From NCBI RefSeq assembly GCF_053078305.1, contig NZ_CP166879.1: 64,000 bases of DNA. One strand, written 5' to 3'. This document shows, one piece after another, positions 6,001 to 9,000 of the stretch. Made by a program: the position numbers. The first letter of the stretch is position 1; each line of letters starts with the position of its first letter.

Positions 6001-9000
6001 CCAGGGCACAGACCTGTGGGGTATGGACACCTGAAGAGCCCGGAGAGACGGGGTACAGTGGGGTGATCAGCAGTATAGGGGATCAGACTGCTGCAGCCCC
6101 GGTATGGTGGGTGGTGGTTCATAAATTGTCGAAAGGTGTCACCCAGGCGGCAGTGGCTTCGATTCCGTGCCGGCCTGATTTGCGCCAGTTGCGTTTTGAG
6201 ATCCAGCGAACGTTTATAGAAAACAGGGCACTTGCTGATGAGCTGCAGGACTTTATGAACGACTGTTATTCACTGGCACTGTATGTGGAAACAGCGTGAT
6301 CAGGGGCAGAGTAAAGATAAAAAAGTGCTTGATGATATCTCCTGGATAGGGAGCGCCACATTCATGCAGGGGGATTACGGGACGCTGCAGTCAAAGATGC
6401 CGCGGGCTGCGTTCCCGTGGAATACAGCACGTGACAGCGGACGACCGGATACGGGGCGGGGAGGCTATCCGACATGCCGGGAGTGGTGGAGTGACAGTAG
6501 TGTGGGGCTGAAAAAACGGGTCATGGAGGAGGTCAGTGACCATTACTGGTTACGTCTGTCAGCTGCAATGAAGATGATTGGCAGTAGTCAGGTGGATTAT
6601 AAGGAGGAGGTGATCAAGCGTCTGGTGAGTCCGGCAAACCTGACGCTCTCTCAGGGGGGAGAGGTGTATCGTGGCTATGGTGGCAATGCAGATATGACGA
6701 CTATGAATGCGGTGGCCCGGATTGCGGGAACGGCGGGCAGTGCGGTAGCAGCACTGGGTGCGTTTCCGGCACTGGATGCAATGCGGCAGGCACTGCCGAT
6801 GGTACAGTCGATAATACTGATGGCGATTTACATCATGATACCGCTGATTCTGGCGTTTGCGGCATATGAACTGTCGACGTTAATCACACTGACGTTTGTG
6901 GTGTTTGCGGTACACTTTCTGACGTTCTGGTGGGAGCTTGCACGGTGGCTTGACAGCTGGATGCTGACGGCGCTGTACAGTTCGGATACACATACCCGGT
7001 TCAATATGATGGGATTCCAGAACACATCGGATGATCTGATAATGAATCTGGTGATGGGGACAATGTTTCTCGTCTTGCCGGCAGTGTGGCTGGGTGCGTT
7101 GTCCTGGGCTGGGGTGAATATGGGCTCTGTGGTTGGTGATACTTTTGGAAAAAGTACAAGTCATACCTTTCAAGCTGCATCAAAAAGTGGTGATCTTGCA
7201 TCTAGTGGAATTTCAAAAGGTATGAATAAATAAGAAAAAGTCCAGTATAATTTATACTGGACTTTTTGAATAAGTATCATCATATGAAAGGCGTTTTTAT
7301 TTGTGTTGGTGAAATAAATGGAGATTCAATTTCTGATACAAATGGTGATTTATAAGATAGGTCTAAGGGCATGTCGTTATTATTTTTAATAACTGAAGCA
7401 GATTGTTTATTAGCCAAAAATGCACAAGTGACCTTTTTTACAAGGGAGTTGAAGGTCCATGGATTATCCATCGGCTTACAACGCCACATTGCTTTTTCAG
7501 ATTCGTTATTCATATCTATACCCTCGGCGCAGGATAAATAACACAGTGTTATCATACGTCTTGTATGATAAATGTGCAATCACATGTCTTCCATTTGATG
7601 AGAGGCTGTGACGCCACATTACCTTGGGACACGGGGATTCTGTTGAAATGATCCATCTGAGAATGTATCTTGTTGTTATGTTATAACATGGGTGAAGACA
7701 GATGAAACCAAATATCCATCCTGAATACCGCACAGTAGTGTTCCATGACACGAGTGTGGATGAGTACTTTAAAATAGGTTCTACCATCAAAACAGAGCGC
7801 GAGATTGAACTGGACGGTGTGACGTATCCGTATGTGACGATTGACGTTTCCTCCAAATCGCATCCGTTCTATACCGGTAAACTTAGAACGGTGGCATCAG
7901 AAGGCAATGTTGCCCGCTTTACTCAGCGTTTTGGTCGTTTCGTTGGGACTCAGAAGGGGGAATGATGAAAGTGCTTAATTCTCTGCGAACGGCCAAAGAG
8001 CGACCTCCTGACTGTCAGATAGTGAAGCGCAAAGGGCGATTGTATGTAATTTGTAAATCCAATCCTCGTTTTAAGGCTGTTCAGGGACGCAAAAAAAAGC
8101 GTTGATTCCGAAGCTTGTACATAGACTGTGAGCAGTGCTCAGACATGATTTATGTCGGTACATTAGCATTGATGTGTGTCGGCATTAATTAATTTTTGTG
8201 GATGCGTTCTATCATTCATATCTTCCTGTGCTTTGCTGCTTGATGGGAAATCCTCTTCCAATATCACGGCGATGTTCACTTTTTGCGTAAGTGGACATCG
8301 CTGCGTATTTTTTGTTAGTTGGGGTTTGAGGCTCAGTGGAACAATAACCGCCGTTAAGCGGTCATTTTAAATAGCCAAAAATCAACCCAAAAATCAACCA
8401 GCCAATTTACATCGTGAATCTGCGTTCTTGGCTATCTGTTTTGGGGGGGCCAAGTTGGCTTTAGTCATCCTGGCCGTTTGCGGAACAAAAGACGTTGTTG
8501 ATCTCAACAGATTGATTTACCTGTTATTGACCATTCAATTGAACCGCTTAACCGCCTTTTGAGTTCCACTACTCCCCAAACCCCTAGTTTAGTTTTTAGT
8601 TTCCAACGGTGGTAATTTTTCAAGTGTCAGTAGTTCCTGCCCCTTTACCCGACGGCATTGGGAAGCTGCATCCTGAAGTTTTTCGCGAACGTTATTATCA
8701 TAGTCGGGATCCAATAGTTGGTATTGAAGACTATCTTTGTATGATTGAATGATATTTAGTGGACAGATAAGGCGTATATCACCGAGTGAATAAAGTTTTA
8801 CTGCCTTAAGTAAATAGTATTTTTCATCTGAAGAGCGAGCACTCTGCCAGGCTGAGTTTCTGAAATATTCAGCAGGATATGAGGTGGTCGGTATTCCATA
8901 AACATGAGGAGTCAAGTCCATGATTCCTGATATTTTAAGGAAAATAGTTAGTATTAGAGCTGGAACCATATGCACAAACGTAAAAATGAAGGCTAATATT

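Follow-up and report, generated by a model that had tools for sequence, protein, structure and literature searches.

A supernumerary ykgM-ykgO gene pair with a Zur-operator homologue in a pheV-integrated conjugative element of Escherichia coli

The 64,000-nucleotide stretch of Escherichia coli DNA discussed here (from now on, the window; contig NZ_CP166879.1 of assembly GCF_053078305.1) carries a pair of overlapping genes homologous to ykgM (rpmE2) and ykgO (rpmJ2), which code for the type B, zinc-free forms of the ribosomal proteins L31 and L36 (L31B and L36B). This pair is not the core ykgM-ykgO locus, but a supernumerary, horizontally acquired and island-borne copy. On balance, we lean towards regarding it as an operon that is cargo on an integrative conjugative element (ICE) of the PFGI-1/pKLC102 type, inserted at pheV, and that would be under the control of the Zur protein of the host.

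A second ykgM-ykgO pair, inside an island at pheV

Both genes lie on the + strand in uninterrupted open reading frames (ORFs), of 87 codons for L31B (7702-7965) and 46 codons for L36B (7965-8105), and the ATG of the second overlaps the stop codon of the first by one base (TGATG). There is no cysteine in the 87-residue translation of L31B and, with it, no CxxC of a zinc ribbon, for which reason the protein is assigned to the zinc-free form. Pfam recognizes L31B as Ribosomal_L31 (PF01197, 87.1 bits) and L36B as Ribosomal_L36 (PF00444, 69.3 bits), and the NCBIfam models for the type B proteins score 122.7 bits for L31 (NF002462, cutoff 86) and 87 bits for L36 (NF002021, cutoff 70). Both are ordinary type B L31 and L36 genes, as expected from the first-pass annotation of this DNA, which had described an intact pair of zinc-independent paralogues. 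With respect to K-12, L31B differs from YkgM in 4 of 87 residues and 47 of 264 nucleotides, and L36B differs from YkgO in 1 of 46 residues and 23 of 141 nucleotides. Residues 1-31 of L31B are identical to those of K-12, while its C-terminus reads FVGTQKGE where the core protein has FVSTKKGA.

At the DNA level, the pair stands well apart from the core locus. A sensitive DNA search found a match to the core ykgM-ykgO genes in 5070 of 5426 complete E. coli genomes, with 80-90% identity to the window, and the window version in only five (four at 99% identity or more and one at 95-99%), so that the frequencies are approximately 0.1-0.2% for the ICE pair and 93% for the core locus. The identity between the two versions is approximately 82-83%, compared with 87-88% between E. 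coli and Escherichia albertii. Synonymous divergence from K-12 (dS) is about 2.0 for L31B and 1.7 for L36B, values at which synonymous sites are saturated, and the ratio of nonsynonymous to synonymous divergence (dN/dS) is about 0.01.

The surroundings of the two versions also differ. In K-12, the core locus is flanked by ykgR and ykgL/ecpR, and the order ykgR-ykgM-ykgO-(ykgL)-ecpR was found in all ten distinct places where the exact K-12 protein is encoded. By contrast, the neighbours of the window pair are the conjugation gene traG_N and cargo genes, without ykgR, ykgL or ecp genes, and the two ICE alleles of L31B (with Glu32 or Asp32) lie 3′ of traG_N in the 20 places sampled with the exact proteins. 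Furthermore, the positions 56679-61120 of the window are 98.3% identical to the K-12 region pheV-yqgA-speC-nupG, a match that ends exactly at the 3′ end of the tRNA-Phe gene pheV (56679-56754, − strand). As homology stops at this point, the whole of 1-56678 is taken as island DNA inserted at pheV, and the pair is located approximately 48.6 kb inside it. Finally, all five complete genomes in which the pair is whole have two matching places, so the core copy has been retained besides that of the ICE.

The first-pass annotation had left two alternatives, namely that the pair was island-borne or that the core locus had become engulfed by island DNA. The first is supported by the divergence of the pair, the traG_N context and the retention of the core copy. 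The second, according to which this would be the ordinary ykgM-ykgO locus of the strain, later surrounded by insertions, can be discarded as practically impossible: it would fit with the 95-98% identity of the proteins to YkgM and YkgO and with promoter hexamers that do not differ from those of K-12, but the DNA identity of 82% with saturated synonymous sites, the missing neighbours, the insertion at pheV, which is distant from the ykg locus, and the second, core-type copy of the carriers all contradict it. The synteny comparison that had been suggested thus places the flanks of the pair in ICE DNA rather than in conserved backbone, and core synteny was found with the K-12 allele.

As an observation on the core locus itself, the search gave 5730 places in 5076 records, which is approximately 650 more places than records, and in some EDL933-type records the match does not go beyond the first 81 codons of ykgM. 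A large lineage, possibly O157:H7, may have an interrupted core locus.

Promoter, operator and origin of the cassette

A consensus scan predicts a sigma-70 promoter at 7643-7671 (+ strand), with the −35 hexamer TTGAAA at 7643-7648, a 17-nucleotide spacer and the −10 hexamer TATCTT at 7666-7671; both hexamers and their spacing are the same as in the ykgM promoter region of K-12. A homologue of the Zur operator, TGTTATGTTATAACATGGGT (7674-7693, + strand), starts 2 nucleotides past the predicted −10, and a Shine-Dalgarno-like GGTGA can be read from the sequence at 7691-7695 (+), 6 nucleotides 5′ of the ATG of L31B. Within the operator lies the perfect 12-bp palindrome ATGTTATAACAT (7678-7689, +), which ends 12 nucleotides before this ATG and is, indeed, just upstream of the start codon, as had been noticed at first. 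Allowing up to one mismatch, the palindrome has no other match in the window; however, at least one such match was found in 21 of 100 shuffles of the 64 kb, which makes the palindrome count alone weak evidence.

The case for an operator is made, instead, by position and homology. When the site was compared with the chromosomal ykgM loci of 80 enterobacterial species, its positions 1-16 were found to carry the majority base at every position of the consensus, and it lies in the interval from the predicted −10 to the Shine-Dalgarno sequence, in which the same 16-nucleotide core is present in all 80 loci. The right outer arm (7690-7693), on the other hand, is degenerate, as the G, G, G and T that occupy positions 17-20 occur in 0, 1, 4 and 5 of the 80 loci, respectively. 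Compared with the operator of K-12, the central 15-16 nucleotides are the same, although the perfect palindrome comprises 12 bp instead of 18. The structure-based 20-bp motif TGWNAYRWTATAWYRTNWCA (taken from PMC4219657) matches the ICE copy at 17 of 20 positions, with the three mismatches in the right outer arm, and the K-12 operator at 19 of 20 by our own count. The three other sites of the window that match this motif with three mismatches look like chance. A skeletal Zur motif, RNNNYRNNRYNNYRNNNY, was also considered and rejected as evidence, since it is found at chance level (263 matches versus 254 expected). The “Zur box” of the first-pass annotation holds as a homologue of the Zur operator, by its position and its 16-nucleotide core, but not as a full box, as the palindrome is the centre of a 20-bp operator with a degenerate right outer arm.

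Some expectations about its function may be derived from the work of Gilston et al. (PMC4219657), who showed that, in K-12, two Zur dimers bind to the L31p operator, whose affinity is the highest of the regulon and which produces a 560-fold repression. Each Zur monomer touches the 5′ purine of an RNNNY element, and binding is hurt most by mutations of the central bases and less by those of the outer ones (PMC4219657). By our reading of this skeleton, the ICE copy would have one complete dimer site, while the other would be without its outermost contact because of a G in place of a pyrimidine at skeleton position 18. As a single outer contact would be lost, the ICE copy is expected to be still repressed by Zur, perhaps less tightly than the core locus. 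Six variants of the upstream region exist among the ICEs, with approximately 10 variable positions, and in all of them the promoter hexamers (the −35 included) and the 16-nucleotide operator core are invariant. Some relatives have, in addition, a 9-bp insertion (GGCTGTGAC or GGCTGTGAT) that resembles a tandem duplication and is located at window position 7603, approximately 40 nucleotides 5′ of the −35 hexamer.

Two hairpins delimit the pair. A palindromic one at 7235-7267, flanked by a run of A and a run of T, is a candidate two-way terminator between traG_N (+ strand) and a small ICE gene on the − strand, and it would shield the pair from the conjugation operon. The other, at 8267-8312 (+), resembles an intrinsic terminator, with a 15-bp stem followed by a run of T, and is a candidate end of the operon. 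With its own promoter and with hairpins on both sides, the pair looks like a self-contained transcription unit. Just past this last hairpin there is a 67-bp stretch (8321-8387) that is 98.5-100% identical to an unannotated sequence present on more than 100 E. coli plasmids, many of them from poultry; it may be the end of an insertion sequence (IS) or a small repeat, and in one plasmid it is found approximately 390 bp from a frameshifted transposase of the IS3 family.

Regarding its origin, the homology of the cassette to chromosomal Escherichia ykgM-ykgO loci is clear from approximately 7641 to 8115 and weakly extends to approximately 7610 and 8150, within a segment (7598-8150, +) whose left limit is the edge of the variable cargo region, at 7597/7598. 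The shared DNA, of about 0.5 kb, includes the promoter, the operator, both genes and a short tail of a few bases past the stop codon of L36B, and it was probably captured as one unit from an Escherichia-like chromosome. The coding sequences are 84.2% identical to those of E. albertii, 82.7% to those of K-12 and 81.2% to those of a divergent species representative labelled as E. coli, and at most 76% to those of Kluyvera, Citrobacter, Salmonella and Klebsiella; the three Escherichia representatives are 87-88% identical among themselves. By this pattern, the ICE allele groups with Escherichia, and either it falls outside the species sampled or its evolution has been faster. Among the 80 chromosomal ykgM loci, which were obtained from a scan of species-representative genomes and none of which exceeds 84% identity, there was no donor. 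A plasmid origin was rejected, because no plasmid of PLSDB has the ICE allele and the best matches are core-type copies, with 82% identity, on F-prime or mislabelled records. Joint capture with the two cargo genes that follow the pair (coding for a 395-residue protein and a DUF2569 protein) was rejected as well, since no homologue of either lies within 8 kb of ykgM in the 80 loci.

Possible roles of the extra copy

If the pair is indeed an operon controlled by the host, its zinc-loaded Zur would bind the retained operator, 2 nucleotides past the predicted −10, and block transcription. When zinc becomes scarce, Zur would leave the operator and the operon would be transcribed from its own promoter. 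The additional L31B would then join that produced by the core copy and replace the zinc-binding L31 in ribosomes, and L36B would likewise replace L36, provided that the variant encoded here still works (see below). L31B is known to repress the translation of rpmE via its N-terminus (PMC9825181), and the ICE protein would be expected to do the same. Due to the lost outer contact, repression of the operon would probably be somewhat weaker than at the core locus.

The available data on distribution show how often this cassette is kept and how often it is lost. The assembly index lists the two exact ICE alleles of L31B in 1328 and 5286 blocks, which indicates that they are widespread; these exact-protein look-ups detect intact L31B only, so that only the DNA survey of complete genomes is unbiased. 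The ICE-borne cassette is found mainly in bovine and Shiga-toxin-producing E. coli, and its carriers include strain 154 (O22:H8) and STEC1585. In complete genomes, traG_N precedes the pair in the five that have it and L31B alone in seven more, and the stretch 3′ of traG_N is a cargo hot spot. Both ribosomal genes are present in 5 of 18 closely related ICEs of complete genomes, although in one of these homology to the window stops 18 nucleotides short of the L36B stop codon and an IS3-family transposase is annotated nearby. Seven others have only L31B, with an IS remnant that begins a few bases into L36B. Three have an IS3 in the operator and neither gene, and the remaining three, such as the variant SI-NP020, diverge from the window at 7597/7598 and have an Hcp/DUF2778 module instead.

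Several observations weigh against a useful, host-controlled operon. Among the 12 complete genomes with L31B there are 7 from which IS elements have removed L36B, as they have from 9 of the 10 sampled places of the Asp32 allele, and the whole pair is gone from 6 of the 18 closely related ICEs, losses that would look like those of a dispensable passenger. The L36B of the window has a proline at position 14, where 74 of 75 species have a histidine (a criterion of our own, derived from these 75 species and without a published definition); the L36B allele in the ICE of strain 154 retains His14. None of the 80 chromosomal loci has a right outer arm like that of the ICE operator, and 8 nucleotides separate this operator from the ATG, versus 9 to 29 (mode 12) in these loci; given both features, regulation may be altered or leaky. 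With three mismatches, moreover, TGWNAYRWTATAWYRTNWCA is not significant in the window, where 4 matches were found versus 2.65 expected. Finally, the copy is redundant with that of the core locus, and most of the purifying selection deduced from the comparison with K-12 may predate capture.

In agreement with several of these observations, it is possible, if somewhat unlikely, that the pair is a passenger in decay, acquired by chance along with other cargo, that provides no benefit to a host for which the core copy suffices and that is now eroding. The loss of L36B to IS elements in most of the variants that bear L31B, the deletion or replacement of the pair, the His14Pro change and the degenerate operator arm would all be explained in this way, as would the frameshift of traG_N in this strain and that of L36B in the ICE of another one, L092 (GCA_964055085.1, 6261-6431), where an extra A in an A8 run near the 3′ end of the gene leads to a 56-residue product with an altered C-terminus. 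By contrast, erosion does not explain that the 12 complete genomes that keep L31B have no disabling mutation in it, nor that the six upstream variants all share the same promoter hexamers and operator core. The broad distribution of the exact L31B alleles also argues against it, with the limit that such look-ups find only intact L31B. Among the ICE alleles of L31B there are four synonymous polymorphisms and a single, conservative nonsynonymous one; although these are small numbers, we have counted them in favour of continued constraint after capture, and the evidence on the usefulness of the pair would be best described as mixed.

A third explanation, which we consider quite improbable, is that the copy has been re-tuned for the benefit of the element, so that a weakened operator would lead to earlier or partly constitutive production of L31B. 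The outcome would be either a shift from ribosomes with L31 to ribosomes with L31B, through the repression of rpmE, or a head start for carriers in zinc-poor niches of the host, in both cases favouring the carriage of the ICE. It would fit with an operator change that is unique and restricted to the outer arm, with the more frequent retention of L31B than of L36B, with an N-terminal region that is needed for rpmE repression (PMC9825181) and is identical to that of K-12, and with a promoter of its own separated by a hairpin from the conjugation operon. Nevertheless, changes in the outer bases weaken Zur binding less than central ones (PMC4219657), which may make for a small effect, a strong benefit is hard to reconcile with how often sister ICEs have lost the pair, and the explanation is built on inference only. 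Even slightly more doubtful is its strongest form, in which a conjugative element would spread a re-tuned ribosomal switch for zinc starvation that produces L31B earlier than the chromosomal copy and gives an advantage in zinc-poor niches, such as the inflamed gut; if it were true, a mobile element would be altering the ribosome make-up of its host.

Returning to the operon under host Zur that we favour, its components may be compared with known systems. It has in common with the ykgM-ykgO locus of the K-12 Zur regulon the same two overlapping genes, the promoter hexamers with their spacing and the central operator, but differs from it in being rare, in its location at pheV instead of between ykgR and ecpR, in its shorter palindrome and operator-ATG gap, in its 82% DNA identity and in the Pro14 of L36B. 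The LSP^P15 island of Mycobacterium avium subsp. paratuberculosis is also a lineage-specific, acquired island with a zinc-free L31 paralogue; there, rpmE2 lies beside genes for a Zur/FurB-like regulator and a ZnuABC-like transporter, which are reported to be up-regulated under zinc starvation (PMC4810606). Unlike it, the E. coli ICE is conjugative and brings no regulator or transporter of its own, its contribution being limited to the two ribosomal genes and an operator for the host Zur. In the VSP-II island of Vibrio cholerae, acquired genes are wired to the Zur regulon of the host by Zur boxes, and those that are Zur-regulated do not code for ribosomal proteins (PMC8248653). Thus, an island-borne zinc-free L31 and island genes under the host Zur each have precedent. 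In the literature searched, we found no report of L31 or L36 genes as cargo of ICEs of the pKLC102 family, nor of ykgM-ykgO as ICE cargo in E. coli, literature coverage being incomplete.

The usual view of the zinc-free L31 and L36 paralogues places them on the chromosome, as part of the Zur regulon, while here a cassette of promoter, operator and genes is found on a conjugative element, beside a toxin system for contact-dependent inhibition (CDI). If expressed, it would provide extra gene dosage for the response to zinc starvation in a form that may spread horizontally. The operator is a natural variant in which one outer Zur contact would be lost, which offers a test of the relation between operator symmetry and repression threshold. 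From the point of view of annotation, a match to “ykgM/ykgO” in E. coli need not be the core locus. If the pair is decaying, its value would be only that of a marker of this ICE lineage.

The conjugative element and its other cargo

The element that carries the pair has the conjugation proteins TIGR03757, TIGR03756 and TIGR03755 (2561-5362, +) and a PFGI-1-class MobH relaxase (TIGR03760, 53891-55378, +), all with scores above their cutoffs, as well as traG_N (5715-7233, +) and a tyrosine integrase (55413-56483, +), and it ends exactly at the 3′ end of a tRNA gene. These are the features of the PFGI-1/pKLC102/ICEclc-type elements (the family that also includes PAGI-2), to which we assign it; the same combination of TIGR03755-7, traG_N, relaxase, integrase and tRNA integration characterizes members of the family in E. 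coli, e.g., ICEEc2, which is named as such in a reference cited by PMC11537424. In close relatives, the conjugation module extends upstream with TraD, a conjugative ATPase and the TIGR03745-52 proteins. The far end of the ICE lies beyond the window, within which there is no second copy of the tRNA 3′ end.

The first-pass annotation had correctly seen mobile-element and toxin genes as the neighbours of the pair; TIGR03755/6/7 and traG_N lie on the left and a locus of the cdiBCAI type on the right. What it took for ICE remnants, however, belongs together with the CDI locus to one largely intact element integrated at pheV, whose relaxase, integrase and tRNA junction are found at 53891-56679. The one defect found in a conjugation gene of the window is a 2-bp deletion in traG_N, where TATATG has become TATG at approximately 6281, splitting the gene into two ORFs. 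Nine further loci that bear this L31B allele lack the deletion, and it is shared by the assembly GCA_000736735.1, in which 12,264 bases are identical to those of the window. Because of this frameshift, the element of this strain has probably lost its self-transmissibility, provided that the deletion is not a sequencing error.

Between traG_N and the pair lies the small ICE gene mentioned above (7280-7513, −), which is divergent from the pair, has no Pfam match and is annotated beside traG_N in all relatives. On the other side, the pair is followed by the gene of the 395-residue protein, which is membrane-like and of no known family (8589-9776, −), and by that of the DUF2569 protein (10027-10521, −). 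The former, whose 395 residues are those annotated in relatives, has an isoleucine codon in place of the start codon in the window, where ORF calling yields only 364 residues, and it is called as a 335-residue protein in two assemblies, GCA_000736735.1 among them; the start of this gene may be damaged. 

The CDI-type two-partner secretion locus (11100-22582, −) sits in the same cargo region as the pair and comprises cdiB, an acyltransferase gene, a cdiA of 2981 codons and small downstream ORFs. The acyltransferase is a toxin-activating lysine acyltransferase and CdiA has a PT-VENN domain; both cdiA and cdiB are fragmented in strain 154. In ICE variants without this locus, the DUF2569 gene is joined to the same downstream ICE genes, which code for a 573-bp ORF, DUF4282, an integrase-domain protein, ArdC, DUF1281 and an N6-methylase.

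Further along the island, + strand ORFs are found at 33797-42696, where close relatives annotate an N-acetylneuraminate lyase, an N-acetylmannosamine kinase, a major facilitator superfamily (MFS) transporter, a hydrolase and a KdgM-family porin, so the island also seems to carry a module for the use of sugar acids. Finally, between the cargo region and the relaxase (48655-52182), ORF size and order with respect to OkiPb01714 point to a DolP-like lipoprotein, a pair formed by a TacA antitoxin and a GNAT toxin, and a YadA-like adhesin.

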